DNA of 64,000 nucleotides from an uncultured Alphaproteobacteria bacterium (GCA_944391485.1 CALXTQ010000020.1:1849-65848); one strand, 5' to 3'; counted from the stretch's first letter, positions 4,635 through 42,481 are shown. The notes: generated by a model from the letters alone, not told the origin. Program-made: numbers and translations.

Positions 4635-4771
4635 TATTTCACCCCTCTTATATATATAAAATTATACTATGATGTTTTTTATTGCCTATAAGATAAACAA
4701 TTTTATTCACAACAAAAAGTTGAAAACAAATTAAATAAGCTCACATTATGAAGTGAATCTATGCCAAAGGT

Positions 4772-5254: not shown

Positions 5255-5356
5255 TATATTTCTCCTGTTTAGTCCGTTTGGTTAAAGTGGGACAAGTTGG
5301 CATAAATTCACTTTTAAGGGGATTATGTTAAATAATCCCCCGAATGTCAAGTCTTC

Positions 5357-5899: not shown

Positions 5900-6314
5900 T
5901 TTCACTCCTTGTCTGTTTTTCTTACAAGGATATTTATCGGAAATAAAACCTATTTTGTGATTTGGCAAAAAACAAACTTTGGCTAGATAAATACCTATGT
6001 AGCTGATGGCTATGTTTCGATTATAAACACGAATTGTCTGGGGTGAGGTGTGATGTGCGAGCATGACACCTCTTTTTGTTGGACAGCACACGGCGGACGG
6101 CTTTCTGATTTCTTTTTAATTCCCAGATGATTAAATCACACCTCAGAGGTTTGTTTTGTTTTATTTGAGGGCTATTTTAAGCTCAGAAAAAAGAAAGCTA
6201 TTTTAATTCTGGTTCTATTATAATAGTTCTTTTTTATATCTATTATAATACTATTATATGGGTTAAAATTTGCTCTAAAATCCTTGTCTGATAAGGAATT
6301 GAGCAATTTAATGA

Positions 6315-6458
6315 GGAAATATAGCTTTCCGATGGCGGAAATAACGGTTTCCGGAACTGGAAATATAGACTTCCCCAAGTGGAAATATAGATTTCCGTTT
6401 TTGAATTTCCGGAAATAACCGTTTCCGCAAGCTTTATAAGTGGAAATAACGATTTCCG
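6315..6458. repeat. Array of six iteron-like palindromic direct repeats (GGAAATA-N3/4-TTTCCG)
   Basis: Copies start at 6315, 6337, 6359, 6381, 6411 and 6442. The first four are spaced exactly 22 bp apart, the last two 30 and 31 bp. Each unit is an imperfect palindrome GGAAATAtagnTTTCCg. The array ends 80 bp upstream of the winged-helix gene at 6538. Confidence 0.7.
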
Positions 6459-6537
6459 CCCCTAATTTTGTTCAATTTAAAATCTCGTATTCTCCGCAAA
6501 TAAATATTTTCAGGACAAAAGTTTATAAGGAGAAAAC

Positions 6538-6951
6538 ATGAGCAAAAGTAAAGCTACATTATCTATTACCGAACGTCTATTATTGGACTTCATTAAATAT
6601 AAAACAAACAACAATCATAAATTCTTTATGGGGAATGATAAAATCGCCATGGCCTTGGGATTAACGGTAAATTCCGCCAAAGTGATGATAAACGGACTTA
6701 TCCGTGAAGGGTATCTTATCAAATCAATGGATACCCACGGCCGCAGAATATTAGAATTATCCGACAAACCATACTTAACCATCGCTTGTGTTGATTTAAG
6801 CAACGTTGATAAACGCATTATATTGCAAGAAGCCCTGAACTTTCAACGAGACGCCGAATACTTCCAAAAACAATACGAGTTTGAAAAAGCACGAGCCGAC
6901 AGACTTCTTGCCGAACTAACACAGATAAAGCTAATGTATAAAGCTAAGTAA
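6538..6951 (+). CDS. Small winged-helix DNA-binding protein (137 aa) with a C-terminal coiled coil; candidate iteron/operator-binding protein
   Basis: RBS AAGGAG 5 nt upstream. HTH-like segment IAMALGLTVNSAKVMINGLIREGYLIKSMDTHGRRILEL. The C-terminus is a charged helix (QKQYEFEKARADRLLAELTQIK). It lies directly downstream of the repeat array. Confidence 0.55.
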   Translation: MSKSKATLSITERLLLDFIKYKTNNNHKFFMGNDKIAMALGLTVNSAKVMINGLIREGYLIKSMDTHGRRILELSDKPYLTIACVDLSNVDKRIILQEALNFQRDAEYFQKQYEFEKARADRLLAELTQIKLMYKAK

Positions 6952-16138: not shown

Positions 16139-16580
16139 CTTTAGCCTGAAAAAATGGCGTTTTTTCATTGACTTGGATTTTTGGGTTTTATGCCTTCCAG
16201 CCACCCCAGCCACAGTTCAAAAATCGTCAGAAATGGCGATTTTTTCTTTATAAATCAACAACTTAACCGAGTCCGAAAATTTATATCATTACAGGCTTAA
16301 ATATGAATCATCTTCGGACTACTTTTTATGACTTTCATTAAAAATCAATAACTTAACTAAAGGCATTCTTTCATAGCCTTTTGGGATTATCATTTATCCA
16401 AAGCCGGATTTGAAGCCTGCCTACAATAAAAGTTTTTGACGTTACCGACGATTTATTTTGGCTCCGGCGGCTAGCCCCAGAGGTTACAGCATACGGCTCT
16501 GGTCTGCTGGTTGTCGCACCTGTACTCTCCGGTCGGGATATGCCTATCCTCTGCCACACATCGGCTAAGCTTAAAAATGA

Positions 16581-27075: not shown

Positions 27076-27483
27076 CTAAAACGAGGTCGTTTCAATTATC
27101 ATTTTTGAGCCCGGAAACCCGAATAGAAGTTGATCTTCGCAGGGACAAACCCTTCCAGTTCTTCCGCAGGTGATTAAACCTCTCAGTACAAAAGGCTTTT
27201 GGCTGTATTTCAGCCCCGCACCGTTATGATTGTTAAGGGTTTTCTGCTTTTGACATTGCTCCCACAGCTCTTGCGAAATCAGCGGCGGATAAACATGTTT
27301 AATAATTCCTCTTTTGGTTTTCATCTCACCATAATGAAAGGGATTGTCCAATATATAATAGATGCTGGAATTGACATGCCACCGGCGGGTGTCGGGTTTT
27401 ATAATTGCGTATTTAAGGGAATAGTGAATTTTGATGAAAGTATTGTTCCGGAAAAGAGCGTGTTGGAATATTTTACCATGCAA
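27076..27483 (-). pseudogene. 3' fragment of a large serine recombinase gene (recombinase domain plus zinc-ribbon region only)
   Basis: LDNPFHYGEM...PPLISQELWEQCQ...FVLRGLITCGRTGRV resembles the recombinase/Zn-ribbon region of large serine recombinases. The N-terminal catalytic resolvase domain is missing, and a perfect 15-bp inverted repeat (27492-27537) lies just upstream. Confidence 0.5.
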
Positions 27484-27713
27484 CTTCTTTCAAAATGTTA
27501 AACTTTCCTGCAAATTCATACAAAGTTTAACATTTTTTCATTCCTGCTCTTTTAACCAAAATCAAACCGCTATATTTTCTGCCTATTTCAAAGAAAATGT
27601 TAAAGAATGTGCATTGTTCGATATTTTTTATATTTGAAAAATTTCTCTTGCAATATAATTTAAATTAGTCTAATCTATATTATATTAAATAAGGTGATTA
27701 TACAGGTGATGGC

Positions 27714-29114
27714 ATGGAATTTATCGGCAGAACGAAAGAACTTAGTGATTTAGAGCAAGAATATAATAATAAACATTCCTTTGTTGTTATATATGGTCGC
27801 AGACGTATCGGAAAAACTGCTTTAATTCAAGAATTCATTAAAGGCAAGCCTGCCCTATACTTCTTGGCGACAGAAGAATCCGAACCGCAGAGTATGAAGC
27901 GGTTTGCTTCGAGTTTATCGCAATTTGCCAATCAGGAATTTATTGCCAAGGCTAATTTTGATGATTGGATTGAGCTCTTCAAACTGTTTGCGGCTGTTCC
28001 AAGCAAAAATACAAAAGTTCTTGTTCTTGACGAATTTCAGTACATGGTCAACACAAATCCCGCTTTCACTTCAATCTTTCAAAAGGCATGGGATGAAGTT
28101 TTATCAAAGCAAGATATTATGGTCATTATCTGCGGTTCATACATTAATATGATGATGAAACAGGTTTTGGCCGAAAACAGTCCCTTGTATGGTCGCCGTA
28201 CATCTCAAATCCGATTGGCGCCGCTTCCTTTTTTTGATATCAGACAACATTATCACTATAAGTCTTTTTCCGATGTGGTTGAGCTTTATTCCGTGACCGG
28301 CGGCGTTCCGAAATATTTGGAATTTTTTGATAACAAAAATTCTTTAATGGATAATATCTCCCGTGTCATTCTTAATAAAAACGGCTTTTTGTACGAAGAA
28401 CCGGCGTTTTTACTCAATAAGGAAGTTAAAGAACCGGTAAACTATTATTCGGTTATGAAAGCAATAGCTCAAAACAATCACAAACTATCAGAGATAGCCT
28501 CGGCAATGTCCACGGAGGGCAACAAATTAAGTCCCTATCTGGAAACTTTGCAGGGGTTATACTTATTGGAAAAACGTGTTCCGGTAACCGAAAAAAAACC
28601 GGAAAAAAGCCGGAAAGGATTATATTTTATCCGAGATATATTTATCCGCTTTTGGTTTATGTTTGTCTTTCCTTATAAAGGAGAGCTTGAGCTGGATAAT
28701 CTGAATTTTGTACAAGATAAGCTGAAATCCAATTTTGTTGATAATCACGCGGCATTTGTTTATGAAGAAATCTGCCGCAACATATTTGCAGAACTATGCA
28801 AAAGTAAAGAAATCGATTTTGTTCCTTCTCGTATCGGCGCATATTGGAACAAAAATGAAGAGATAGATTTGGTTGCCATTGATGAAAGCAACCGGCGTAT
28901 TTTTGCGGCTGAATGTAAATATTACAAAGATGACAAGCCGATTGACGTTAATGTTTACGCAAAGCTGGCGGAAAAATGCCAAGTTAACGATTTCAAAGGA
29001 TATGATTTAACCTACGGCATATTCTCTAAAAGCGGCTTTACAAAACATTTGAAAGACATCGCGAAAGAAAACAAAAAATTTATTTTAATAGATGAATGTG
29101 ACATAGTAAAGTAA
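27714..29114 (+). CDS. AAA ATPase of the archaeal-ATPase (ATPase_2) + DUF234 type
   Basis: Walker A VVIYGRRRIGKTALIQEF, Walker B KVLVLDEFQY, and a ~200-aa C-terminal domain typical of DUF234 fusions. Confidence 0.7.
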   Translation: MEFIGRTKELSDLEQEYNNKHSFVVIYGRRRIGKTALIQEFIKGKPALYFLATEESEPQSMKRFASSLSQFANQEFIAKANFDDWIELFKLFAAVPSKNTKVLVLDEFQYMVNTNPAFTSIFQKAWDEVLSKQDIMVIICGSYINMMMKQVLAENSPLYGRRTSQIRLAPLPFFDIRQHYHYKSFSDVVELYSVTGGVPKYLEFFDNKNSLMDNISRVILNKNGFLYEEPAFLLNKEVKEPVNYYSVMKAIAQNNHKLSEIASAMSTEGNKLSPYLETLQGLYLLEKRVPVTEKKPEKSRKGLYFIRDIFIRFWFMFVFPYKGELELDNLNFVQDKLKSNFVDNHAAFVYEEICRNIFAELCKSKEIDFVPSRIGAYWNKNEEIDLVAIDESNRRIFAAECKYYKDDKPIDVNVYAKLAEKCQVNDFKGYDLTYGIFSKSGFTKHLKDIAKENKKFILIDECDIVK

Positions 29115-29137: not shown

Positions 29138-30250
29138 TTATCTTAATCTTTGGAGGTTGATGATGAAAAAATTTTGGATATTTGGCGTGATTGCTTTGAT
29201 GACAACATCTTGTGTTTTGTTTAATCAAAGTGAAGAAGAAAAATTTGTTAATCCGGTCTTTTATGAAAAAATGATTTCTGCTTCGCATTCAAATTTTGAA
29301 GTGCAGTTAACACCAACCAGTATTTATATGTTTTCCAGTGAAAGCTATAAGTATAATTATACTTGTAAACTCATCAATAACCAAATGGATACGGTTAGTT
29401 TGGAATGTTTTAAGTATAACTACAAAAACGAAAAAGAAGAAACACAAGTTTTCACCTATACTCTTAAACCCTGCACTAAAGAAAACCTTTGCTTAGATGA
29501 AGGTGGATGGCTGGTTTATCAAAAGATTAAACCATATAAATATTTTGATGAAACACTTACCTATATCGTTCCGTCAAAATCTAAAAATACTCCTAAAGAC
29601 AAATTTGTAAACCCGTTGTTTTATAAAAAACTATCGCCAATATCCCGTGGTTCTAGGCCAACCTTTTTGATGCCAACTTCTGTTACGACTATAGATTTAT
29701 ACGGAAAAGAAGATATTGAAAAATGTAAAATGCTTGAAAATACCCCTATGTTTGTAACTCTTGAATGTTCTTATTACAGTGATTTTTTAAAAAGAATGAG
29801 AAATTATGTTGTTCGTTACGTGTTACAAGGATGTGATGAGAAAAAAGAATATTGCTTTGGTGGTGAATGGTTCGTATTGGAAAATGCATCAGGCAGTGCT
29901 ATAGGAACATTTGTTATAGATAAAAAAGATATGGGGCAGTAAGAACTGCCCCTTTATCGTTACCAAGATTTGATATTTCGGATTTGTTGTTCTGCCCAAT
30001 TATTCCGTTTTAGGTCAACATCTTTACGATGCACATTATAAATAATACCTTCATCGCCAAACAAATTTTTCTCCACAATGGCCTTTCTGAGCTTGGGCCA
30101 ATTTTCTTGAGATACATTTCCTGTATTGAATTTTATATCCAATAACACATTTTGCAATTCCGGTGGATATGAAGCAAAATCAGTAAACTCCTTCTGAAGA
30201 TATTTTATATCTTCTGTTATGTGGTTCCGGAGCAATTTATCTATTTCATC
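29138..30250. repeat. Tandem duplication, unit 1 (lipoprotein gene plus the 3' end of a convergent lysozyme-like gene)
   Basis: About 95% identical to 30310-31422, offset 1172 bp. Boundaries are judged from where identity breaks down on each side. Confidence 0.75.
29157..29942 (+). CDS. Two-domain lipoprotein, copy 1 (candidate periplasmic immunity protein)
   Basis: GGAGG then ATGATGAAA. Lipobox LMTTSC. Internal duplication of a ~115-aa domain (FVNPVFYEKM... / FVNPLFYKKL...) with several conserved Cys. Confidence 0.7.
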   Translation: MMMKKFWIFGVIALMTTSCVLFNQSEEEKFVNPVFYEKMISASHSNFEVQLTPTSIYMFSSESYKYNYTCKLINNQMDTVSLECFKYNYKNEKEETQVFTYTLKPCTKENLCLDEGGWLVYQKIKPYKYFDETLTYIVPSKSKNTPKDKFVNPLFYKKLSPISRGSRPTFLMPTSVTTIDLYGKEDIEKCKMLENTPMFVTLECSYYSDFLKRMRNYVVRYVLQGCDEKKEYCFGGEWFVLENASGSAIGTFVIDKKDMGQ

Positions 30251-30289
30251 AGGAGATACCCTCAATTTTTTATTTAACCATATTTTCAA
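29960..30289 (-). pseudogene. Orphan C-terminal fragment (109 aa) of the lysozyme-like gene
   Basis: Its C-terminal ~95 aa (HITEDIKYLQKEF..DFASYPPELQNVLLDIKFNTGNVSQENWPKLRKAI.EKNLFGDEGIIYNVHRKDVDLKRNNW.EQQIRNIKSW) are almost identical to the C-terminus of the 31132-32097 product. The N-terminus is a different, short sequence. Confidence 0.6.
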
Positions 30290-30309
30290 TTTTCCATATT
30301 ATACTCAAA

Positions 30310-31422
30310 ATATCTTAATCTTTGGAGGTTGATGATGAAAAAATTTTGGATATTTGGTGTGATTGCTTTGATGACAACATCTTGTGTTTTGTTTAATCAA
30401 AGTGAAGAAGAAAAATTTGTTAATCCGGTCTTTTATGAAAAAATGATTTCTGCTTCGCATTCAAATTTTGAAGTACAGTTAACACCAACCAGTATTTATA
30501 TGTTTTCCAGTGAAAGCTCTAAGTATAATTATACTTGCAAACTCATCAATAACCAAATGGATACGGTTAGTTTGGAATGTTTTAAGTATAACTACAAAAA
30601 CGAAAAAGAAGAAACACAAGTTTTCACATACACGCTCAAACCCTGCACTAAAGAAAACCTTTGCTTAGATGAAGGGGGATGGCTGGTTTATCAAAAGATT
30701 AAGCCATACAAATATTTTGATGAAACGCTTACTTATATCATTCCTTCAAAATCTGAAAATGCTCCTAAAGACAAATTTGTAAATCCGTTGTTTTATAAAA
30801 AATTATCGCCAATATCCCGAGGTTCAAGGCCAACCTTTTTGACGCCAACCTCCGTTACGACTATAGATTTATATGGGAAAGAGGATATTGGAAAATGTAA
30901 AATGCTTGAAAATACACCGATGTTTGTGACATTAGATTGTTCATTTTATGAAGAAGAAACTAAAGAAACATATGGGCTTGTTGTTCGTTATGTTTTACAA
31001 GGATGTGATGAAAAAACTAAATATTGTTACGGGGGAGCTTGGCGTGTATTAGAAAATGAATCAGGTAGTGCTATAGGAACATTTGTTATAGATAAAAAAG
31101 ATACGGGGCAGTAAGAACTGCCCCTTTATCGTTACCAAGATTTGATATTTCGGATTTGTTGTTCTACCCAATTATTCCGTTTTAGGTCAACATCTTTACG
31201 ATGCACATTATAGATAATACCTTCATCGCCAAACAAATTTTTCTCGGCAATAGCCTTTCTGAGTTTTGGCCAATTTTCTTGAGATACATTTCCTGTATTG
31301 AATTTTATATCCAATAACACATTTTGCAATTCCGGTGGATATGAAGCAAAATCTGGAAACTCCTTCTGAAGATATTTTATATCTTCTGTTATGTGTTTCC
31401 GGAGCAATCTATCTGTTTCACC
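30310..31422. repeat. Tandem duplication, unit 2
   Basis: See 29138-30250. Confidence 0.75.
30329..31114 (+). CDS. Two-domain lipoprotein, copy 2
   Basis: About 93% identical to copy 1 at the protein level, with a divergent patch near the C-terminus (DCSFYEEETKETYGLV versus ECSYYSDFLKRMRNYV). Confidence 0.7.
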   Translation: MMMKKFWIFGVIALMTTSCVLFNQSEEEKFVNPVFYEKMISASHSNFEVQLTPTSIYMFSSESSKYNYTCKLINNQMDTVSLECFKYNYKNEKEETQVFTYTLKPCTKENLCLDEGGWLVYQKIKPYKYFDETLTYIIPSKSENAPKDKFVNPLFYKKLSPISRGSRPTFLTPTSVTTIDLYGKEDIGKCKMLENTPMFVTLDCSFYEEETKETYGLVVRYVLQGCDEKTKYCYGGAWRVLENESGSAIGTFVIDKKDTGQ

Positions 31423-32097
31423 TTTAGCTAACCTAAATTGACTATAGTTAATATATGAACTTGCTTTTTTATTGTTCTTTATAATATTACCTTTAGAATC
31501 TTTGTTTTGGCGACCTTGATTAATTTCATTTTGAAATATATTAAACGCGGCTTGTTTTTCTGCTTCCGTCGGTGGACGTCCGTTTACCTCCCAATTTACT
31601 TTATTAAAAGTATTCCAATCGTCAACATTGGCACCGGCACCCGTTGTCTTATTCCATGTTGTGTCAATATAGACATAGTCTAAAGGTTTTTCCTTATCTT
31701 TTATTACTGGAAGCATCCGCTCACTCAACTCCTTATCGGAAAACTTACCAGATGGAATATTTGCATCATTTACCACATTCCCTTTTGTATTTTGAGCGAT
31801 TTTGTAAGAAGCGGAATTATTTCCGATTGGTTTGGGTGATAAAGCAGAGCTTACTTTATTTCCTTCTTTCGCCACATTTTTAGCTAATGCTTGCGATAGG
31901 TAAGAACGAGCCGTGGTTGCTGGTTTAGATTGAAGGTGAGAAAAATCATTTTCCAACAAATGACGAGAGTTAAATTTATAGTTTTTATCTGTATCTTGAC
32001 GGGAAGAAAGCTCTCTTGAAAGCAGAGTTTGAGATTGTTTCTTTTTCAGCTCTTCTTCGGGGTCGTCTTGAATTATGTATTGAATTAAATTAGACAT
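31132..32097 (-). CDS. Protein with a divergent phage-type lysozyme-like (GH24/T4L-superfamily) C-terminal domain and a low-complexity N-terminal region; candidate secreted effector/toxin
   Basis: Starts at MSNLIQYI (ATG 32095-32097, AAGGA upstream). The C-terminal segment ITEDIKYLQKEF...LLDIKFNTGNVSQENW...L.W resembles the P22/T4 lysozyme ITAEKSSELLKEDL...LIFNIGKSAFAGS...LLW. GETDRLL aligns with the catalytic-Glu region EGERLKAY, but the Asp/Thr beta-hairpin appears to be missing. Confidence 0.45.
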   Translation of the reverse strand: MSNLIQYIIQDDPEEELKKKQSQTLLSRELSSRQDTDKNYKFNSRHLLENDFSHLQSKPATTARSYLSQALAKNVAKEGNKVSSALSPKPIGNNSASYKIAQNTKGNVVNDANIPSGKFSDKELSERMLPVIKDKEKPLDYVYIDTTWNKTTGAGANVDDWNTFNKVNWEVNGRPPTEAEKQAAFNIFQNEINQGRQNKDSKGNIIKNNKKASSYINYSQFRLAKGETDRLLRKHITEDIKYLQKEFPDFASYPPELQNVLLDIKFNTGNVSQENWPKLRKAIAEKNLFGDEGIIYNVHRKDVDLKRNNWVEQQIRNIKSW

Positions 32098-32360
32098 GCG
32101 TTTTTCCTTTACAAATTTTTTTAAAACAAAAAATCCGAAGAACTTAATCTTCGGATTTTGGATACACTTATCCCAAGTGATAAATCTCATATAACAAAAT
32201 TAAATACAATTTGCAAGACACAATAAAATACATAAACAACTTTTAGAAAATTTTCTTACACTCCTCTAATAACAAAAGTTATTAGCAGAATAAAATCTCC
32301 GTTAATCCTTCGTTAAAAATGCTTTTTATTTTATCATAACTTTTTAAAATTATAATAAAT

Positions 32361-32969
32361 ACAAAAAAGTCGGTTATCACATATATCAGAAAAAGTACGG
32401 ATAAATAATCACTTGAACATCAGGAATACGAGAACGAATTCGCAAAGAAAAATGCTCTTAAAATAGACAGATGGATTGAAGAAAGCATTTCCAGCCGCAA
32501 GGAGCTGAAAAAAAGAAAACTGGGAGAACTGCTGGAAGAGCTGCAAGAGGGAGATTGTCTCATATGCAGTGAAATTTCCCGCCTTTCCAGATCCGTTGGA
32601 GAAACTTTTTTAATTTTGCAAACCCTGATTTCTAAAAAATGTCAGGTTATTACTATTAAAGAAAACTATCATTTAGGCAACGATTTACAATCGCAGGTTC
32701 TGGCTTTCGCTTTCGGTTTATCTTCCCAAATTGAGAGAGATTTGATATCTCAAAGAACAAAATGTTCGTTGGACGCCAAAAAAGCAGCGGGCGTTAAACT
32801 CGGCAGGCCGATAGGCGCGGAAAGCAAAAAACTGAAACTATCCAAAAATACTAAAAAAATAAGAAATTTACTGGATAAAAAAGTGCCGAAAGCACAAATT
32901 GCCCGAATTATGGGAGTTCAGAAAATAACGTTACGAAGATTTATCAAACGTATGGGATGGTATGACTGA
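32361..32969 (+). pseudogene. Small serine recombinase (resolvase/invertase family) pseudogene
   Basis: The frame reads ..SVITYIRKSTDK*SLEHQEYENEFAKKNALKIDRWIEE...LLEELQEGDCLICSEISRLSRSVGETFLILQTL...GRPIG...HTH. The catalytic region YIRKST is present, but the conserved Gln codon is TAA (32406-32408) and no ATG start remains. The downstream part is intact to the stop at 32969. Confidence 0.7.
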
Positions 32970-33083
32970 CTGAAAATCGGAGCAGCGACTCTGATTTTAC
33001 TTTATACCGGAGTTTACAAGGGAAACGACCTTCCCGGCAGCCTGCGGAGATGTCGGGTCTCCGCATCTACGAGAAGAATATCA

Positions 33084-33908
33084 CTATAAACCCAAACTTC
33101 TTACGCTTACTTTCATGGATATTTTATGTTTTTCTTTCGGCTTCAGGCTAATGAAAGAATCTCCCTGATTGGCCGGTTCGACGCAGATAAATTTTTTATA
33201 TTGTCCCGGACTCATTTCCGCCAGATCTTTGTTCGGGTTCCACACGACCGTTGTGTTTGAACCGCTTTTCTCAACAGATATAATGCGTTTTAATACCGGA
33301 TCCACTATTTCTACGGTTCCGGTATGGTTTATAAACGCCGCATCAAACTCGCCTCTGATTTTCAAATTCTGCTCCAAATCATATGTCTTTCCGTCTAACG
33401 AGCTTTTGTACTGATGACCGGACAACCCCCGCAACTCGACTTCATCAATTGAACCAATGTTAAAATAAGCATGCAGAGCCTCGCTGAACCTAAAAGTCTC
33501 GTCGCCGTTGTTGACAGTCTCAAGGCAGCACTCGAGCACATCCGTAATTTTGATGAAAAACGCCGCCGACACGTCAATGCCGAATTTTGCGTCAGGAACC
33601 AGAGAAAACGCAGCTTCTATTCTGCTCTCGTCAACAGAAACGTTTTTTAAATCCCAATTTGAGAGTCTTGCAAAACCATGGCGCGGAAAATGACTGTTTA
33701 GGGCTTCTTCCGCAAAACGCGGCCAGCAAACCGGGATACCGCCACGGATTGCGTGGATCCGGTCAAATTTGTTAAATTCTCCAAGCCAGAAGATATCCTG
33801 CCGTTCTTTTCCGGGACGATAAGAAACAATATTGGCCCCCCAGGGAGAAATTTTGCATTCGGCCAGATTATTGCTCAGATTGATAAAACCGTTTTCATTC
33901 ATATCCAT
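33084..33908 (-). CDS. Aldose 1-epimerase family protein (glucose-6-phosphate 1-epimerase, YeaD-like)
   Basis: Sequence features typical of the D-hexose-6-phosphate mutarotase family (GGIPVCWPRF, ALHAYFNIG). The start is placed at MDMNENG to avoid overlapping the NUDIX gene. Confidence 0.7.
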   Translation of the reverse strand: MDMNENGFINLSNNLAECKISPWGANIVSYRPGKERQDIFWLGEFNKFDRIHAIRGGIPVCWPRFAEEALNSHFPRHGFARLSNWDLKNVSVDESRIEAAFSLVPDAKFGIDVSAAFFIKITDVLECCLETVNNGDETFRFSEALHAYFNIGSIDEVELRGLSGHQYKSSLDGKTYDLEQNLKIRGEFDAAFINHTGTVEIVDPVLKRIISVEKSGSNTTVVWNPNKDLAEMSPGQYKKFICVEPANQGDSFISLKPKEKHKISMKVSVRSLGL

Positions 33909-33966
33909 TAACAGACATCTCCATTCTGATCTTGAAGCAAAATAGTTTGTTACAGAAATTGTTTTG

Positions 33967-34500
33967 TTAATCCAAGTCGATAATTTCCTTAATGTGGAAA
34001 TTATCGTCATAAATATAACGCCGTTTTACAAAGCGTCCGGCTAATATTTCCGGTAAAAAATTTTGATCAGCCTCACGCATTTCCCGATAGGGAATTTTGT
34101 CTTCGTCCTGCCAAAAAGCGTTTACCTCCGCCTCATTTTCCCTTATCGCGCCAGAAAATTCGGTGCTTTTGAAGACATGAACATAAAAATTAACGTGAGG
34201 AAACTCAATATACCCGACCTGCACGGGATTTTTGATTGTAATTCCCGTTTCCTCAAAAGTTTCTCTGATGACGCAGTCCTCCATCGTTTCTCCCGCTTCT
34301 TTTTTGCCGCCCGGAAAATTAATACACCCTTTATTAATGCCACGGTGGTGCCTTATCATTAAAAATTTATGATTTACCGTATCTTCGACGATAGACAACG
34401 AAGCATCTTTCCTATCTGTAACTTCCATAAAATCTGCGCCTCCTGTTTTTCTCTTTTCATTATCGGAAAATTGTACTCTTTTTTCTCTAAAAGGCAACAT
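33967..34500 (-). CDS. NUDIX hydrolase
   Basis: Nudix box GGKKEAGETMEDCVIRETFEETGI. Confidence 0.8.
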   Translation of the reverse strand: MLPFREKRVQFSDNEKRKTGGADFMEVTDRKDASLSIVEDTVNHKFLMIRHHRGINKGCINFPGGKKEAGETMEDCVIRETFEETGITIKNPVQVGYIEFPHVNFYVHVFKSTEFSGAIRENEAEVNAFWQDEDKIPYREMREADQNFLPEILAGRFVKRRYIYDDNFHIKEIIDLD

Positions 34501-34698
34501 AATTCAGTCTGGCAGGGAACTGCGCAAAAAAATCCTATTATTAAGAGCGGCAGCGGAAAAAAACGGCGCAAAACAGTGTGGTTTATACGGATAATATTAA
34601 ACAAAATTGCAAAAATATCCCGCTGTTCCCCGAATAAATATTGAAATTTAAAATTTCCGACTTAAACCAATAATCATTTTGGAAACGGGGAATTTATC

Positions 34699-35865
34699 AT
34701 GAAAAAAAGCTTAATCGTTCTGGCTTTCGGAACACTGGGACTGGGAATTTCCGAATTCGGCATGATGAGTATTCTGTCAACTGTCGCCGAAGGACTCGGC
34801 ATCAGCATACCGCAGGCCGGCCATCTGGTCTCAACCTATGCGCTCGGCGTCTGCTGCGGCGCTGTCGGACTGGTTTTTCTGTCACAGGGAAAGCCTTTGA
34901 AATCACTGCTGATCGGCCTGATGACCGTTATGTGCATCGGAAACTTTCTGGCAGTTATCGCTCCGAACTATAATTTTATGCTTTTTGCCCGTTTTATTTC
35001 CGGACTGCCGCACGGCGGTTATTTCGGCGTGGCTGGAATTGCCGCCAAGAGAATAGCCTCTCCAAACAAACAGGTGGAAGCTGTCGCCATTATGATTTCC
35101 GGCATGACGGTCGCCAATTTAATCGGTATTCCCATGGCCTCGTATATTACGCATATTATGTCGTGGCACATGCTTTTTGCTCTTGTTGCCCTATGGGGAC
35201 TTTTTACAATCTGGTCTATTATCAAATGGGTTCCAGCAACGCTTCGCTCAGAAAACAACAGCATAAAATCGCAATTCGGCTTTTTGAAGAAGCCTCTCCC
35301 CTGGCTTCTTCTGGCGACAATTATGCTGGCAAACGGCGGCATGTTCTGCTGGTACAGCTATATTAACCCTATTATGGTCGACGTCGCCGGCTTTAAGTTT
35401 TATTCCATGGCAGGCATTATGATTTTGGCCGGTCTGGGCATGGTTCTCGGCAATTATGCCAGCGGAAAGCTTTCGTCTTTTATTACGCCGGTCCGTCTGA
35501 CAATGATCATGATTTGCCTGATGTTTTTGTCCGCGCTGCTGATGGTTTTTTGGGCGCCTTATCCTTATGCGGCTCTGGCGCTTATGTTTCTGGGAGCTTT
35601 TGGCCTGTTCGGCGTTTCCGGACCGGAACAATATCTGATTATCGAAACTTCCAAAGGCGGCGAGATTCTCGGCGCCTCAGGCGCTCAGGTTGCCTTTAAT
35701 CTGGGAAACGCCATCGGCGCTTTTCTGGGCGGGCTACCCATCAGCCTGGGATATTCGGCGGAATACTCGGCTTTTCCGGGAATTTTTCTAACGCTGGCCG
35801 GACTGGCCGCCATCTATTACTTCAACAAATTTTACCGGGCAGAAAAAAAGCCGGCTGATGACTAA
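34699..35865 (+). CDS. MFS transporter (12-TMS DHA1-like)
   Basis: 388 aa and highly hydrophobic, with an MFS-type repeat organisation. Confidence 0.8.
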   Translation: MKKSLIVLAFGTLGLGISEFGMMSILSTVAEGLGISIPQAGHLVSTYALGVCCGAVGLVFLSQGKPLKSLLIGLMTVMCIGNFLAVIAPNYNFMLFARFISGLPHGGYFGVAGIAAKRIASPNKQVEAVAIMISGMTVANLIGIPMASYITHIMSWHMLFALVALWGLFTIWSIIKWVPATLRSENNSIKSQFGFLKKPLPWLLLATIMLANGGMFCWYSYINPIMVDVAGFKFYSMAGIMILAGLGMVLGNYASGKLSSFITPVRLTMIMICLMFLSALLMVFWAPYPYAALALMFLGAFGLFGVSGPEQYLIIETSKGGEILGASGAQVAFNLGNAIGAFLGGLPISLGYSAEYSAFPGIFLTLAGLAAIYYFNKFYRAEKKPADD

Positions 35866-35876
35866 GTTTTTCCATT

Positions 35877-36371
35877 TTGAGTCTCCGTCAAAACAAAAAT
35901 CTTGAATTGTTTTTGATTACTGATACACTTTATGATTGTAAAGCATTTATCGATAACCAAATGGAGACTTCAATGCCTAAAAATGAAAAAAACGAAAATA
36001 TCATCAAAAAGCTGGGAAGCACTTCCCTGACCGAAGACTACGTCTTTCAGTCCGGAAAAAGCTGGGGAACGGAATATTATATGTCAATCTACCTTAAAGA
36101 CATCAGTTTTATTGAATTCGGGTATAAATCCTATCCCATCCTACTGATTCTGGCCGGCCTGCTTTTTGTTGTCTTTTTAAGCGATGCCAACGCATCCCTA
36201 CTGCTAACGGCTATTTTGCTGGTCATCGGCTTTTTCGTTACGCGGAAACATTCGGTAATCATCTCGGCGCACAGCAGGCAGTCCATTGTTCAGCCCCTGA
36301 AGGGAAAAACGACGGAAGCCAAGGATTTCGTGCATAAGCTTATGGATGCGAAGAAAAATCTTGCGAAATAA
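35877..36371 (+). CDS. Hypothetical small membrane protein
   Basis: Two adjacent TM helices (YPILLILAGLLFVVFL / LLLTAILLVIGFFV). The start is uncertain; METSMP at 35961 is an alternative. Confidence 0.35.
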   Translation: MSLRQNKNLELFLITDTLYDCKAFIDNQMETSMPKNEKNENIIKKLGSTSLTEDYVFQSGKSWGTEYYMSIYLKDISFIEFGYKSYPILLILAGLLFVVFLSDANASLLLTAILLVIGFFVTRKHSVIISAHSRQSIVQPLKGKTTEAKDFVHKLMDAKKNLAK

Positions 36372-36660
36372 AATTCTTCTCTAAAAAACTATTAACGGGA
36401 ACGCGGAGCCGGCGGCAACGCGTTTGGAAAGAAAATGCGCAGGTTCAGAGAACCCGGCGTCAGAAACAGCCCGAAAGGCAAAAAAAACGGCGGCTGCGCA
36501 TCCTGAAAAATGGGGGGCTTGAGAATTTTCTGCGCCGAAAGCCCCTCTTTTTAATATCCGGAACTCAAAAGACACAGTCCTTTTTTATTCAGGTTCCGCT
36601 TTCCCTTGATAAAAGCGTATGGCTGATTATATAAAGCGCAGTTTTTCAGGGGAGCTGCAT

Positions 36661-39159
36661 ATGTATAAATATCTTTTTATCTTACTCTTGTCATTCTGTC
36701 TTTGCGGAACAGTAGACGCTCAAAATGCCGGCACCGGCGAAAAGGCGGCTGCTTTGAATTATACAAAAATCAACAACGATCTGGACACTCTCAGCAAAAA
36801 ATTGTCTTCGGGAAAAGTTTCCGCCAAGGAAACCGGAGAATATCTGCAAAAGATCAACCAGATTCAGGACAGCGTCAATCTGGCGCGCCAGCAGTCCAAC
36901 GACGATCTGGAAAACACTCGCAAAAAACTCAATGCCCTGGGGCCGGCTCCCGAAAAAGACGAAAAGGAGCCGGCGGCAATCGCCAGACAGCGCGAAGAGT
37001 TCAACAAAACGGCAGACATGCTCAAAACCGCCGTTGCGCAGGCAGACCTTACCAAAACAAAAATAGAAGACCTGAATAATCTGATTTTAAAAATCCGCAA
37101 TCAGGAACTTCTGAATAATATTCTGACCAAACAAAGCTCGATTTTCCACCCGGAAGAATTTGCAAAATCTCTGGTCAGTTTCAGCGGTTTCCTGTTTGAA
37201 ATCATTAAATCGCCGTTTACGTGGTATAAAAGCCTGTCAACGGAAGATCAGGAAAAAGTCAACAGCAATATCGTCTATGTCATCGTCGTCATGCTCGCCG
37301 CTCTGGCCGCCGCCGTTTATTTAAGCCTGTATATCCGCAAATGGTTCGGGTATCAATCCGGCATCGAGCGTCCCGATTATTCTCAAAAAGTGCGTGCAGC
37401 TTTATGGATGACCGTTGCTAGAGGCGTTATCCCGGCCGCGATTATCGGCGCCTTTCTCTTCTGGCAGAAAAACAACCAGATTATCAACAACGGTTCTTTC
37501 GGTATTCTGCTGCATACGGCCGCCGTCTATCTGCTGTATTACTATCTTATCAAGGCGCTGGTCCGGGTCATCTTTACGCCTTCGAACAGCAAATGGCGAA
37601 TTATAGAGGTTTGCGACGAAAAAGCGCAAAGCACGAGCCGGGCTCTTATCTTCTCCACGGCGGCAATCTGCATTGTCTCTTTTTTCCAGAGCATGGCCGG
37701 ACAAATGGATTATAACCAGGACATCATCTATTCCCTGAAAATTTTTGCCAACGCGGTTAAAGCCTTCTGCATTATCATAACAGCGCGCAAATTCCTGTAT
37801 GACAGCAAATCGCTGACAGACGAAGAAATCAAAGACGGCAACAATATCGGCGATTTGAGCACATCGTCAAAAGTCAGCCTGTTCATCTCTTTTCTGATGG
37901 CGGCAGCTTTCGCCCTGTCGCTGCTCGGTTACATCAGGCTTTCGGAATTTATCATCAACCGCTTTATTATTTCGGTAACGGTTATCGGCATTTTTTATAT
38001 TTTTGACAAACTGCTGCGCGTGGTTTTTCACCGGATCCTGCTGTTTAAGTTCTGGATTACCACATTTCGCATCAATCGCAGAACGCTGGTCAAAACGGAA
38101 TTCTGGTTCGGTTTCTTTCTGACGCCGGTACTGGGCATTTTGTGCCTTATTGTTCTTCTGGCCGTCTGGGGTGTGGCCGTTGATATTATGCTGGCGCAGA
38201 TCAAAAACTTTCTGACAGGCTTTAATATCGGCGGTGTCAGAATTTCGATAACCTCCATTCTTCTCGGCATTATTTCCTTTTTTGTTTCCATGTTTCTGTT
38301 CAAAATGCTCAAAAACAGCTTTAACAGCGGCAATCTGAGCAAAATAGACATGGATCCCGGCGTCCGCAATTCTCTGGTGTCAGCGATCGGTTTTATCGGG
38401 TTGATTTTCTCGGCTGTTCTGGCTATCGCCGTCATGGGAGGTAGCTTCAGCAGCATTGCCATTATTGCCGGCGCCCTGTCTTTCGGAGCCGGTCTCGGCC
38501 TGCAGAATATGGTCAGCAACCTGGTTGCCGGCCTAACAATTTTGTTCGAACGGCCGGTCAAGATCGGAGACTGGGTAATTATAGACGGACAGGAAGGCAT
38601 TGTGAAAAAAATCAATATGCGGTCGACGGAGCTTGAAACATGGAACAAGTCCAATGTTATCATTCCCAACTCGGACATTCTGTCCAAAAGCCTGATTAAC
38701 AAGACTTACAGCGACCTGATGAGCCGGGTCGAAATCAAAGTCGGCGTTGATTACGACAGTGACATCAATCTGGTTAAAAACATTCTGCTTGATATCGCCA
38801 AAAATGATCCGGAAGTCCTGACTTCTCCGCCGCCGTCTCTGTCATTTACCGATCTGGGCGACAGCAGTTTGAATTTTCAGCTGAACTGCTTTACGGCCAA
38901 CGTATACAGCGCGTCGGGGATAGCTTTCCGCATCCGGGAAAACATCGTCAACAAATTCAGGGAGAACAACATCAATATCCCTTTTCCGCAACGGGTGATT
39001 CACTGTTTTCCCGAGGCTGCCGCAACGCCTTTCGTTCATCAGGACGGGCAGCTTTCCGCGGCGAAAGATTCTGCTCGCCGGATCGGGACAAAGCCTGAGG
39101 CTGAATCCCGCGCTCATCCGGATGAACAGCAGCTTGCGACAAATTCTTCTTCCCGCTAG
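36661..39159 (+). CDS. Mechanosensitive channel, MscK/KefA-like (MscS family with a large periplasmic N-terminal domain)
   Basis: Signal peptide MYKYLFILLLSFCLCGTVDAQ. Periplasmic coiled coil, about 10 TM helices, and an MscS core domain (GDWVIIDGQEGIVKKINMRSTELETWNKSNVIIPNSDIL). Confidence 0.85.
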   Translation: MYKYLFILLLSFCLCGTVDAQNAGTGEKAAALNYTKINNDLDTLSKKLSSGKVSAKETGEYLQKINQIQDSVNLARQQSNDDLENTRKKLNALGPAPEKDEKEPAAIARQREEFNKTADMLKTAVAQADLTKTKIEDLNNLILKIRNQELLNNILTKQSSIFHPEEFAKSLVSFSGFLFEIIKSPFTWYKSLSTEDQEKVNSNIVYVIVVMLAALAAAVYLSLYIRKWFGYQSGIERPDYSQKVRAALWMTVARGVIPAAIIGAFLFWQKNNQIINNGSFGILLHTAAVYLLYYYLIKALVRVIFTPSNSKWRIIEVCDEKAQSTSRALIFSTAAICIVSFFQSMAGQMDYNQDIIYSLKIFANAVKAFCIIITARKFLYDSKSLTDEEIKDGNNIGDLSTSSKVSLFISFLMAAAFALSLLGYIRLSEFIINRFIISVTVIGIFYIFDKLLRVVFHRILLFKFWITTFRINRRTLVKTEFWFGFFLTPVLGILCLIVLLAVWGVAVDIMLAQIKNFLTGFNIGGVRISITSILLGIISFFVSMFLFKMLKNSFNSGNLSKIDMDPGVRNSLVSAIGFIGLIFSAVLAIAVMGGSFSSIAIIAGALSFGAGLGLQNMVSNLVAGLTILFERPVKIGDWVIIDGQEGIVKKINMRSTELETWNKSNVIIPNSDILSKSLINKTYSDLMSRVEIKVGVDYDSDINLVKNILLDIAKNDPEVLTSPPPSLSFTDLGDSSLNFQLNCFTANVYSASGIAFRIRENIVNKFRENNINIPFPQRVIHCFPEAAATPFVHQDGQLSAAKDSARRIGTKPEAESRAHPDEQQLATNSSSR

Positions 39160-40438
39160 TCAGAGCCGCATCCTCCGACCGAACCGCCTTTTTATCGGAG
39201 AGTGCAGATTCCGGCCGTAAAGGCATCTCCCGGACAGGAAGCGCCGGTTTTTGCGAAGACGATTCCCGGACAGAATCCTGCCGAGAAGAAGAGAGGTAAA
39301 AAGCGGCCGTCCGGCCGTCGCGGTCAGCCAGTTTTTCGTCAGCCCCGTACCTGCGCAATACCGCCACACTGTCGGCAAAACCGTTTCTAGCAGCCGTAAT
39401 CAGGGGTGTTTCGCCTTTGGCGTTGAGCGCGTCGGGATTGGTTGAGAGCTCCTGACAGTACCCATAGTTTTTTTCGTAAGGACAAAACTGCAGCAGCAAC
39501 TCCAGAATATCGGGACGAAAAACCGCAAAGTGTAAAATCGGATCCATCGGATGCGGGCGGAGATCCGGCTCGCGGATGATTTTTCCCTTATCGCGGTGCT
39601 CTTCCAGAAAAGTCTTAATATCGGCGGCGGATGCTCCGGAAGCTATCTTATAACGGAGGATGTCCGTCGGAACAGGATCTTTTTCGAATGGCAGATTTGA
39701 CGATAAAACGATCTTTGCGGCGTCGGACTTCAGCGGCTTGTTTGTCCGGAGCTTCCGGTAATGCCGCTGCAGCCGGCGCGAGGCCTCCTCAAAACCTATG
39801 CCGTGCGTCAGAAACTCCCGATACTTTTTCAGACTGTCGTAACCGGCGAGCATCATAATTCCGTTCGGCACCCGGTTTTTTCTTCCCTGTATTCTGAAAT
39901 AGGGAAAATACCGCGCGGCATTGTCATAGTAAAGAGCATTTGACCCCGTTCCCAAAGGAACGGCAAAAGATATATATTCTTCCAACTCATCCGGTATTTT
40001 GAATTTATCGTCAAACCGGCAGGTATTGTTCAGAAAGGCAATTTTCAGATCCAGCGCCGTTTTGCACGGCAGATACAGCCGCGAACGGTCAACAGCCCCG
40101 CCCATGCAGCTTGAAAAATCCCAAATGCTCCAGTCGGCGGGAGAATTTCCCTCCATGCAGGAAGAATGCATGTCCAGCCCGCCGTGCCGCGCGGCTATCT
40201 TATCCACCAGTTCCGGAATGATCTTTTTCTTTTCGACTTCATCACCGTATACCAGCAGCAAAAGAGCATATTCCGCCTGCGCTTCCGGCGTCTGCATCCG
40301 CGACAGACGTTCCATAACCCGCCGTGGGTTGCGGTTGACATCGGACAAAACCTCCAAAAGCGCCGGTTCTTTGCTGCCAAATGCCGGAAACGCAAGAAAC
40401 AAAACGGTCAGGAAACAAAAAAATCCGCGTTTTTTCAT
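38972..40438 (-). CDS. Secreted ankyrin-repeat-containing protein with a disordered C-terminal tail
   Basis: Signal peptide MKKRGFFCFLTVLFLAFPAFG. ANK repeats (KGETPLITAARNGFADSVAVLRRYGADEKLADRDGRTAAFY). The 3' end overlaps the convergent channel gene by ~190 bp, so exact ends are uncertain. Confidence 0.6.
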   Translation of the reverse strand: MKKRGFFCFLTVLFLAFPAFGSKEPALLEVLSDVNRNPRRVMERLSRMQTPEAQAEYALLLLVYGDEVEKKKIIPELVDKIAARHGGLDMHSSCMEGNSPADWSIWDFSSCMGGAVDRSRLYLPCKTALDLKIAFLNNTCRFDDKFKIPDELEEYISFAVPLGTGSNALYYDNAARYFPYFRIQGRKNRVPNGIMMLAGYDSLKKYREFLTHGIGFEEASRRLQRHYRKLRTNKPLKSDAAKIVLSSNLPFEKDPVPTDILRYKIASGASAADIKTFLEEHRDKGKIIREPDLRPHPMDPILHFAVFRPDILELLLQFCPYEKNYGYCQELSTNPDALNAKGETPLITAARNGFADSVAVLRRYGADEKLADRDGRTAAFYLSSSRQDSVRESSSQKPALPVREMPLRPESALSDKKAVRSEDAALTSGKKNLSQAAVHPDERGIQPQALSRSGEQNLSPRKAARPDERKALRQPRENSESPVAEKGY

Positions 40439-40440
40439 GA

Positions 40441-42357
40441 TTACAGCCCCAGTTTTGTGATTATGGCGCGAAAACGGGTTTTCAGCCTCAATTTCCAGTC
40501 TTTACTCAGCATCTCTTCATACACGGCCTCCAGATTGACGCTCTCTCCCCCAGCAAACAGCAGTCTTTCAACCCGGTTTTCCGGAGATAAGGCATAATTT
40601 CTGATCACGATGCCCTGCCCCGGCGTCTGTTTGATACCGACGGACAGATCAAGATTCCGGACGGAATATTCCAGGTCTTGAGGCCGGATGTCGCCGCTGA
40701 AGGCAATCGTATCCACGCCGCCGGTTTCCGTGATCGCGTCCATTCCGTCGTTCAGCCGGTAAAAATAAACATCATTGCCAAGCCCGCCATGCAAGTCGTC
40801 ATTATATCCCAGACCGGCGATAAGATCGTCTCCGGAAGTGCCCGTCAACGTGTCGATTTTTCCCGCTCCTTTTAAAATCAGCTTCTCCGCATCCGCAAAC
40901 CTGATGTCCGGAACAATTTCGCCCAGCTCGTTCAGATTATTTCTGACACTTTGGCCGACATTGCCGTAAAAATCCTTTTCGGGAGTAAAGGAATCCAGTT
41001 TTTTGCTGAGCAAATACATCATCACTTTGGTTTTGCCGAGGCCGTTCTTTTCATAATAGGCTTTTACCTTTTCGGAAAAAGCGGAGACATCGGATGACCA
41101 TTCCTTCTTTTCGCTGTTCCATATAATCTGGATTGATTCCAGCCAGGACTGCAATTCGCCGCTTTCCGCCAGAAGCGTCTGCCAGACATGCCCGTAAAAA
41201 TCGTCATAGGCATCCAGAACATACGGCGCCGACTGAAAATGCGGCGCATTTGTCTCCTCGCTGCCGGTATGGGTGCCCCGGAACTTCTGCCCCATCAGCT
41301 TTTCCAGAACCAGCAGCTTGCGCGCATCTCCTATGTAATTGACGCCGTCTTCGGATACTCTGGAAGCGGGATCGGCATCGGCAACCCCCGCCCATGAATA
41401 AACGATGTCGTTTACCAGCCCAAGCTGCTCGAGAAAATCGTCGGTTTCGGTAAATTTTACGACAAGATCCCTTAATTTACGGCTTTCATCGCGTTCCATT
41501 GCCTGATGCAGAGAAAATACGACGCCCATACCCTGTATATCGGGAAGTTTTTTTATGTCTTCTGAAACCGGGAGCATTTTGTAGGTGCCCAGCATATTAT
41601 TCGTATTCAGCCAGACTTCCCGAAGACGGGTATGTCTTCCGTCCGCGAACACCACGTCGGCGTACCGGCCCAGAACATTGCCGTGCCCGTCGACCTGCTG
41701 CGCCGGCTCCGCCGTCAGACTGATCGACGCTATTCTTTCTTTTTCAGGCGTTGAAAAATATTTTTCGGAAAGAGGCGTTCCCCTTCCGCAGTCCTGAAAA
41801 GATTCCCGGAAATTCATTGCCGCGCCCGGTTTCCAAAACGTCAGCCGCGCATAAAGGTCGTCCTGCGGCGTTATGGTTTCCCGGCCGTCGTTCAGCCGGC
41901 GCAATTCTTCGAAAATATCGCCGCCGTCATATCCCGACAGACCGCTGCCCAGAATTTTGCCGCCGTCCAACTCGCGGCTTTTGCTCTTGCATAAATCTTC
42001 ACGGCCGTAAAACAGAAAAGCATCGTCCGGTCCCGGCAGAAAAGCCTGTTCCGAAAAGTCATCATTATTGAAATCAAACAAAAAACTCATGAGAGAGCGG
42101 TTCTTTTCAGGACCGTACAAACGAATACCGTCGCCGTTCAGATCAAGGAGCAGAACCTTCATATAATTACGCTCGTTTATTTCATGGCCGTTGAAGGTAA
42201 TATAATTTCTCGGCAGCAGTTTCACGTCGCTCCGCCGTACCGGCGGCGGCACAGCCGCAGGCGGCGTCCGGCTCCAGTTATCGAGCGCCGCATAAGCTCC
42301 GACAATGGCTGCCGTCGGAAGAAGGACCAAAGCCGCATCTTTCAGAAAACGTTTCAT
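40441..42357 (-). CDS. Secreted protein with C-terminal RTX-type (hemolysin-type) calcium-binding repeats
   Basis: Start at MKRFLKD (AAAGGAG upstream) with a signal peptide. C-terminal GGxGxDxUx-like repeats: GTSGDDLIAGLGYNDDLHGGLGNDVYFY. Confidence 0.65.
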   Translation of the reverse strand: MKRFLKDAALVLLPTAAIVGAYAALDNWSRTPPAAVPPPVRRSDVKLLPRNYITFNGHEINERNYMKVLLLDLNGDGIRLYGPEKNRSLMSFLFDFNNDDFSEQAFLPGPDDAFLFYGREDLCKSKSRELDGGKILGSGLSGYDGGDIFEELRRLNDGRETITPQDDLYARLTFWKPGAAMNFRESFQDCGRGTPLSEKYFSTPEKERIASISLTAEPAQQVDGHGNVLGRYADVVFADGRHTRLREVWLNTNNMLGTYKMLPVSEDIKKLPDIQGMGVVFSLHQAMERDESRKLRDLVVKFTETDDFLEQLGLVNDIVYSWAGVADADPASRVSEDGVNYIGDARKLLVLEKLMGQKFRGTHTGSEETNAPHFQSAPYVLDAYDDFYGHVWQTLLAESGELQSWLESIQIIWNSEKKEWSSDVSAFSEKVKAYYEKNGLGKTKVMMYLLSKKLDSFTPEKDFYGNVGQSVRNNLNELGEIVPDIRFADAEKLILKGAGKIDTLTGTSGDDLIAGLGYNDDLHGGLGNDVYFYRLNDGMDAITETGGVDTIAFSGDIRPQDLEYSVRNLDLSVGIKQTPGQGIVIRNYALSPENRVERLLFAGGESVNLEAVYEEMLSKDWKLRLKTRFRAIITKLGL

Positions 42358-42481
42358 TTCAGGCTCCTTTTTGGATATCATAAAGCCCAAACGTTAATTT
42401 TAACTGAATCAAAAATGAAGCGGAATACGGCCGAAAGAACAAAAAAAAGCCCCGTAACCGGGGCTTTCTCTCATTCTTTTA

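Follow-up and report, generated by a model that had tools for sequence, protein, structure and literature searches.

An inactivated Mpi-like small serine recombinase gene is the last gene of an AT-rich block in an uncultured gut alphaproteobacterium

The recombinase pseudogene and its surroundings

The DNA analysed here, which will be referred to as the window, is the whole stretch of 64,000 nucleotides from an uncultured Alphaproteobacteria bacterium (GCA_944391485.1, CALXTQ010000020.1:1849-65848). Positions 32369 to 32969 on the plus strand carry the remains of a small serine recombinase gene of the Mpi-like resolvase/invertase type with a 201-aa ancestor, recognised by a match to the Pfam Resolvase domain and by 99% identity to the intact protein P0001. 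Frame 0 from 32340 to 32969 translates as LFKIIINTKKSVITYIRKSTDK, a stop, and then SLEHQEY...RFIKRMGWYD up to the normal TGA at 32967-32969. The G at 32369 is the remnant of the ATG, the Ser10 codon AGT lies at 32394-32396 and the premature TAA at 32406-32408; the catalytic motif, read straight from the sequence, is YIRKSTDK with a stop in place of the next residue, Gln.

A homologue search found 6,787 proteins, and among the best 120, which were examined, nearly all have 201 amino acids and P0001 is the top match. P0001 is encoded in three assemblies (L001, L002 and L003) at the position held by the pseudogene in the window, with a convergent aldose epimerase gene followed by NUDIX and MFS genes downstream. 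The lesions were mapped by base-by-base alignment to these three orthologues, to which outgroup loci were added. An 11-bp deletion between 32368 and 32369 (plus strand) removed GGAGAAAAAAT, that is, the Shine-Dalgarno sequence and the AT of the ATG; the site is flanked by A6 runs, consistent with an origin by slippage or microhomology. A further cluster of lesions specific to the window lineage, delimited by alignments including the outgroups and by simulation of the clustering, extends from 32379 to 32432 (plus strand). It comprises G>A at 32379 (A5T), C>T at 32406, which turns the CAA of Gln14 into the TAA stop, T>C at 32412 (F16L) and a 3-bp in-frame deletion after 32432 that removes Ile23. 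A5T, F16L and the loss of Ile23 had escaped the initial annotation, which had correctly reported a stop at the invariant Gln of the S-x-x-x-Q motif and the loss of the start codon. Differences from L001 at 32375, 32405 and 32417 are synonymous; the window has kept the state of the outgroup loci at 32405 and probably at 32417.

No in-frame ATG, GTG or TTG was found upstream of the recombinase frame, and the first in-frame start past the TAA is a TTG at 32616, which lies beyond the catalytic Ser codon and opens an ORF of 117 aa. The same ORF is present verbatim on an independent metagenome scaffold of 3.9 kb (L054), which aligns to window positions 32309-35905 without gaps, at 99.83% identity over 3597 bp, and carries every lesion. 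Since an independent scaffold carries the identical set, the lesions are real and heritable and not sequencing errors. The pseudogene state is polymorphic among strains that are ~97.5% identical in DNA. The earlier claim of a resolvase pseudogene was clearly borne out by the Pfam match, by the lesions mapped against intact orthologues and by the same allele in L054. Positions 32369-32969 represent a genuine pseudogene, an inactivated 201-aa small serine recombinase, in which the ribosome-binding site and the ATG are gone, codon 14 is TAA and three further lesions are present. Because the ribosome-binding site and the ATG were deleted and the TAA follows the nucleophile Ser by four codons, the gene, as judged from its sequence, is incapable of yielding an active enzyme.

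With the stop read as Gln, the repaired protein matched Pfam Resolvase (PF00239) with E=1.6e-27 and 96.8 bits, its residues 7-147 aligning to profile positions 1-144 of 145. It possesses the N-terminal catalytic domain and the Ser nucleophile within the Y-x-R-x-S-T-x-x-Q motif of small serine recombinases. The only other Pfam match was a weak C-terminal HTH_23 (E=0.009); the Recombinase (PF07508) and zinc-ribbon domains were absent. A C-terminal helix-turn-helix is also indicated by the 201-aa length of the orthologues and by an alignment to the Gin invertase structure 4m6f that reaches residue 190. The best curated NCBIfam model for the repaired protein was that of the Mpi 'master DNA invertase' (NF009949/PRK13413), which scored 239.3 bits in a nearly full-length alignment (profile positions 2-197 of 203). 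Intact orthologues obtained 247-253 bits, and the curated equivalog cut-off of 272 bits, missed by the window protein and the intact orthologues, was reached only by a more distant relative (L023, 274.6 bits). On sequence comparison, the recombinase clade of the gut and rumen 'Alphaproteobacteria' MAGs is either a sister group of the Bacteroides Mpi invertase family or lies at its fringe.

In the promoter region of the recombinase, the pseudogene has kept a -10-like hexamer (TATAAT, 32351-32356, plus strand), which was read from the sequence in a stretch conserved with L001 and was not called by a simple promoter scan. Directly past the stop codon, a terminator-like hairpin (AAAATCGGAG-N6-CTCTGATTTT, 32973-32998, plus strand) is predicted to fold and has conserved counterparts, AAAACCAGAG...CTCTGGTTTT, in eight related loci. 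It went unflagged in a simple terminator scan and is taken to be the terminator of the recombinase gene. The second hairpin, which had been described earlier as CGGAGA-N7-TCTCCG, does exist and reads GCGGAGA-N7-TCTCCGC at 33044-33064, in the gap where the recombinase and epimerase genes converge. Neither strand provides it with a T-run, and the aligned related-island loci contain no counterpart of its sequence. With a z-score of only -1.8 for the fold of the whole region, and not being shared with related islands, this hairpin was rejected as a terminator or att site.

The first gene of the GC-richer flank, identified by Pfam and by its homologues, encodes an aldose/hexose-6-phosphate 1-epimerase (33084-34010, minus strand), and its convergent ORF begins 115 bp past the recombinase stop codon. 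As listed, this ORF has 308 aa compared to 271-274 aa in the homologues; the true start is probably internal, and the overlap with the NUDIX ORF at 33967-34500 is probably an artefact of ORF calling. An exact look-up of the window epimerase protein returned no record because the ORF start is over-long.

The AT-rich block and its large serine recombinase

The pseudogene is the last gene of an AT-rich block that occupies positions 1 to 33040 of the window and has its left end outside it. The GC content is 0.25-0.38 over 1-33000 and 0.42-0.54 to the right, with a step from ~0.37 to ~0.45 at ~32950-33100 (300-bp resolution), in agreement with the earlier statement that the composition switches within ~100 bp of the gene. 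Homology to related islands in other species breaks off ~30-90 bp downstream of the recombinase stop codon, at a point that varies between loci. The right-hand island edge claimed at this position is thus upheld by the GC step and by the end of related-island homology just past the recombinase gene.

The cargo of the block includes type I restriction-modification subunits, two Fic proteins, Mrr, AAA ATPases, ankyrin proteins, a DUF234 ATPase, a class I lysyl-tRNA synthetase (20992-22635, plus strand) and a fusion of a class II aminoacyl-tRNA synthetase-like domain with thymidylate kinase (tmk; 17171-19027, minus strand). A trio consisting of the tmk fusion, a peptidase S51 and an AAA_28 protein also occurs 1-4 kb from the recombinase in L018, with 49-72% protein identity. 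Closer to the pseudogene, a tandem duplication with a period of 1172 bp (29139-30267 and 30311-31439, 90-99% identical) has doubled a 261-aa gene and added, at 29960-30289, a partial copy of the 352-aa gene at 31132-32190 that covers its C-terminal 109 aa; the duplicated unit is single-copy in strain L001.

Several segments of the block share 92-94% DNA identity with loci of other species, namely 1-405 and 4751-6934 (L009), 27567-29066 (L012) and 16206-16435 (L026), these three loci having been fetched solely for encoding a recombinase homologue. The segments point to recent interspecies exchange of island cargo. The DUF234 ATPase shares 96% protein identity with its L012 counterpart. For the recombinase genes, DNA identity between the window and L009 or L012 is only ~70-72%. 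Because it has retained ~30% GC and contains segments 92-94% identical to the islands of other species, the block is best described as horizontally shared, compositionally unameliorated and not old. The initial annotation had called the island old, which is contradicted by the polymorphism of the pseudogene in ~97.5% identical strains as well as by the unameliorated GC content and the segments shared with other species.

The term island is used here on the grounds of composition, cargo and cross-species identity: the block differs in composition from its flank, contains fragments of a large serine recombinase (LSR) in addition to the small one, and includes horizontally shared segments. No tRNA gene was found in the window, and no relative with an empty, island-free site in a metagenome scan or among the contexts of epimerase homologues. 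The scan returned one 2.3-kb contig at 69% identity. Epimerase homologues bear the same taxon label, 'Alphaproteobacteria bacterium' MAGs; relatives with an epimerase 64-78% identical have unrelated neighbours, and for two of these proteins (P0122 and P0124, 74-78% identical) the contexts are not syntenic and the genomes are low-GC throughout. L001, the only close relative with a long contig, has an AT-rich block of different content at the same site, and the close strain L054 also carries AT-rich DNA there. A related species shows variation at this site as well, as the contigs L056 and L057 encode an identical epimerase (78% identical to that of the window) and have different downstream genes.

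Two remnants of an LSR gene were detected within the block. A middle fragment at 27136-27384 (minus strand), corresponding to residues ~189-305, contains the Recombinase domain (PF07508, E=3.9e-9) and matched the LSRs of related islands by tblastn with up to 55% identity, while a C-terminal fragment (residues ~414-540) was found by Pfam and tblastn at 22794-23090 (minus strand). The two are split by ~4 kb with two ankyrin-repeat genes (23225-26250, plus strand), and the catalytic N-terminus is missing. An LSR of ~500 aa is intact in five related genomes (L004, L006, L007, L010 and L015), where it sits at the GC boundary (~0.30 to 0.45-0.56), 3-6 kb downstream of the Mpi-like gene and with a conserved core-gene set beyond; the corresponding protein of L004 (C4) has the domains PF00239, PF07508 and PF13408. 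From this position and from established LSR biology, the large and not the small recombinase is likely the integrase of the island family. The small recombinase would accordingly be an accessory gene of AT-rich islands whose likely integrase is the LSR at the island edge. The immobilisation that had been read from the decay of the small recombinase does not follow from it, as this enzyme is of the resolvase/invertase type and an LSR occupies the GC boundary in five related genomes. For immobilisation, the fragmented LSR of the window is the better evidence, as far as gene content can tell.

When one genome per species was scanned, 50 loci of the recombinase family were obtained, almost all in gut or rumen 'Alphaproteobacteria bacterium' MAGs, several of which have two or three copies. 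The neighbourhoods are not syntenic with the window, yet recurrent: in 28 of 53 loci a divergent gene for a 160-187-aa protein without Pfam domain precedes the recombinase at a distance of ~190-290 bp, and frequent neighbours are ankyrin-repeat proteins, RhuM, extra small recombinases and often an LSR of ~500 aa (Resolvase, Recombinase and zinc ribbon). These loci describe a recurrent family of AT-rich islands in gut and rumen Alphaproteobacteria, with an LSR at the edge, an Mpi-like recombinase with its upstream module, and ankyrin and defence cargo.

Upstream deletion, mosaic structure and conserved module

The alignment of L001 with the window falls into two blocks (L001 3361-5418 with window 30256-32313, and L001 9932-20606 with window 32309-42956), demonstrating that 4.5 kb of L001 sequence is missing from the window upstream of the pseudogene. 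In L001 this segment specifies proteins of 249 and 601 aa as well as a Slam-type surface-lipoprotein assembly protein. The Slam-type gene (PF04575) and the gene of the 601-aa protein, which has no Pfam domain, lie at L001 5664-9717, immediately upstream of the intact recombinase gene and in divergent orientation to it, and have been lost in the window strain. The junction is a shared TT at window 32309-32310, flanked in L001 by ...AATCC-TT-GGTATT on one side and ...TTATTG-TT-CGTTAAAA on the other. L054 retains the L001-type upstream DNA, at least over the 326 bp that the scaffold covers, despite its lesions. Since L054 has the lesions together with the upstream DNA and the window has the lesions together with the deletion, the inactivation of the recombinase preceded the 4.5-kb deletion.

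The deletion also cut through a conserved element. The window retains at 32309-32322 (plus strand) only the right half (TTCGTTAAAAATGC) of a 24-bp element that reads GGTTGATTTTATTGTTCGTTAAAA in full and which, in the alignments of 38 loci of the recombinase family, precedes the start codon by 73-80 bp. The left half was lost together with the rest of a conserved upstream module of ~250 bp, defined by aligning the upstream regions of 17 loci. The module has a left element with the consensus ACA(C/T/G)AAA(C/T)(C/G)AAC(A/G)(A/T)TT and a right element with the consensus GGTTGATTT(T/A)AT(T/C)GTT(C/G)(G/A)TTAAAA (9764-9779 and 9922-9945 in L001). Both are present in 38 loci, mostly 148-161 bp apart, and have in common an inverted 10-bp core, A(T/A)(T/C)GTT(C/G)(G/A)TT, with an invariant GTT at its centre; a TTGAAAC(C/T)C(C/T)TTGGTTTT-like block is conserved between the cores. 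The window deletion ends on the invariant TT of the gene-proximal core, and its other end lies in CC-TT-GG.

The damage to the recombinase gene is strikingly uneven. Eight of the nine differences from L001 in the gene and terminator fall inside 65 bp, a clustering that uniform scatter never matched in 200,000 simulations (P<5e-6). They are followed by a tract of 726 bp (32433-33158), which runs from the gene body through the terminator into the epimerase gene, of which it covers the first 75 bp, and differs from the intact L001 allele only at 32504. Window and L001 diverge by ~2.4% overall and at 6.1% of the four-fold sites of flanking genes (81/1,328) compared to none of 64 such sites in the recombinase body, these counts coming from a single pair of lineages. 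Because the identity extends over synonymous sites, the terminator and 75 bp of the next gene, selection at the protein level is unable to explain the tract, and recent recombination can. The simplest reading of this pattern is a mosaic gene, in which the 5′ 65 bp stem from an older, decayed allele and the remainder was recently homogenised with an intact-type allele. In its extent, 32433-33158 resembles a recent homologous-recombination tract spanning the boundary between island and core. As another origin of the 5′ patch of lesions, copying from a paralogue was considered and rejected: no donor was found, and T5, L16 and the Ile deletion are absent from the N-termini of ~75 family genes in the fetched loci.

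Taken together, a history in three steps would best account for the locus. The small recombinase would have been knocked out in a first step; its gene body would later have been overwritten by, or have remained identical to, an intact-type allele via homologous recombination, leaving the lesion-bearing 5′ 65 bp; and the 4.5-kb deletion would then have taken the upstream module and the Slam/lipoprotein gene pair. The LSR of the island would have been broken up already before those steps. We consider this account as a whole, with a dead Mpi-like recombinase, an accessory role on an LSR-linked island and the three-step history, very probable.

An intact protein would presumably bind the module upstream of its own gene, either recombining it by inversion or resolution or regulating its own expression. 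The inverted orientation of the module was not seen in 28 intergenic regions (848 HSPs, with two weak reciprocal minus-strand matches only), and concerted evolution of the two cores was rejected, as identity within loci (7.77 of 10) does not exceed that between loci (7.75; permutation P=0.49). In the window and L001, searching for a partner of the upstream element in inverted orientation, or for any inverton, gave only chance-level AT-rich repeats, and no convincing promoter flanked by inverted repeats was found in the window. The lack of an inverted orientation and of homogenisation argues against frequent inversion. A far-reaching interpretation would be that the intact orthologues form an alphaproteobacterial Mpi-type branch on LSR-integrated islands, with the module as recombination substrate (an inverton for the divergent gene, or res-like) and the window deletion as the footprint of aberrant cleavage by a trans-acting paralogue. 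We regard this idea as doubtful; the 4.5-kb deletion arose after the window recombinase was already dead, which counts against an active inverton. Operator-like or res-like binding sites are the more conservative reading of the module than a recombination site or footprint. Should the module act as a switch, a phase-variable trait would be locked in those strains that have lost the enzyme.

Alternative explanations and relation to known systems

The view that the small recombinase was the island's own integrase or excisionase, and that its decay immobilised an old island, draws on its place as the last gene before the GC step and on the association of the family with AT-rich, island-like DNA in other species. 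However, a 201-aa protein of the resolvase/invertase type without Recombinase and zinc-ribbon domains is at odds with such a role, an LSR and not the small enzyme abuts the GC boundary in five related genomes, and the gene is intact in sister strains sharing the same junction; moreover, with ~30% GC and 92-94% identity to other species the block is not old. The small recombinase is thus unlikely to be the enzyme that moved the AT-rich block, and the complete scenario, including an old and immobilised island, appears very unlikely to us. A different question is whether the 3′ part of the gene was kept because a truncated product, such as the 117-aa ORF from TTG 32616 with an E-helix remnant and the helix-turn-helix, serves as a DNA-binding regulator. 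The retained promoter region and a gene body with one difference in 726 bp next to a lesion-ridden 5′ end would fit this proposal. Nevertheless, the identity includes synonymous sites (0/64), the terminator and the neighbouring gene; the sole Shine-Dalgarno-like sequence, GGAG, lies ~14 nt before the TTG and is too far away; and the upstream element to be bound is half deleted. We judge a retained regulator to be highly improbable.

Least credible of all is that the locus reflects an error of sequencing or assembly, or a functional gene translated from a non-canonical start with TAA recoded as Gln. It is true that the stop falls exactly on the conserved Gln codon, one transition away from CAA, and that the remainder of the ORF is undamaged, but the independent scaffold shows exactly the same five separate lesions, among them the loss of ribosome-binding site and ATG, and in-frame ATG, GTG or TTG codons are missing upstream. 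Furthermore, TAA is the commonest ordinary stop in the window, where 24 of the 50 long ORFs end with it, as do 12 of the 19 within the AT-rich block, and recoding is therefore not credible. We consequently favour the inactivated accessory recombinase and its stepwise decay. For annotation, the locus should be labelled an Mpi-like small serine recombinase pseudogene and not an island integrase. It is unsuitable for dating the island or for arguing its immobility, for which the LSR fragments at 22.8 and 27.1 kb are the better marker.

Among known systems, Mpi of Bacteroides fragilis is the closest in several respects: it is the best-scoring curated family, has ~200 aa and the same architecture, and occurs in gut bacteria beside variable surface and defence genes. 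In contrast to Mpi, the window protein and its intact orthologues remain below the 272-bit cut-off, the hosts are Alphaproteobacteria MAGs and not Bacteroidales, and the window copy is dead. The defining property of Mpi is the inversion in trans of many scattered promoters, with at least 13 such invertible regions under its control (PMC5903667, citing Coyne et al. 2003). Neither the window nor the conserved upstream module yielded an invertible region.

The nearest solved structures belong to the Hin/Gin/Cin/Pin invertases and the Tn3 and gamma-delta resolvases, which are distant (E=1e-6 to 3e-4), with matches to Gin (4m6f, E=1e-6), Tn3 resolvase (5cy1, E=4e-5) and gamma-delta resolvase (1gdt, E=2e-4). 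The Y-x-R-x-S-T-x-x-Q catalytic motif is common to all of them, and the binding-site-like repeats just upstream in a divergent intergenic region are reminiscent of res between tnpA and tnpR. An adjacent Tn3-type transposase and an invertible segment of the G/H type are, however, absent; Pfam searches covering a selection of the longer ORFs in the AT-rich block, together with the recombinase neighbours in related loci, revealed no Tn3-type transposase. The usual divergent neighbour is instead the 160-187-aa protein without Pfam domain, unlike in a Tn3-family resolvase with res, and two inverted cores ~155 bp apart fit neither the res nor the hix/gix architecture. With the LSR integrases of the phiC31, Bxb1 and CcrAB type, the small recombinase has PF00239 in common and an LSR gene lies 3-6 kb away in related islands, but it differs from these ~500-aa enzymes by its length of 201 aa and by lacking both PF07508 and the zinc ribbon.
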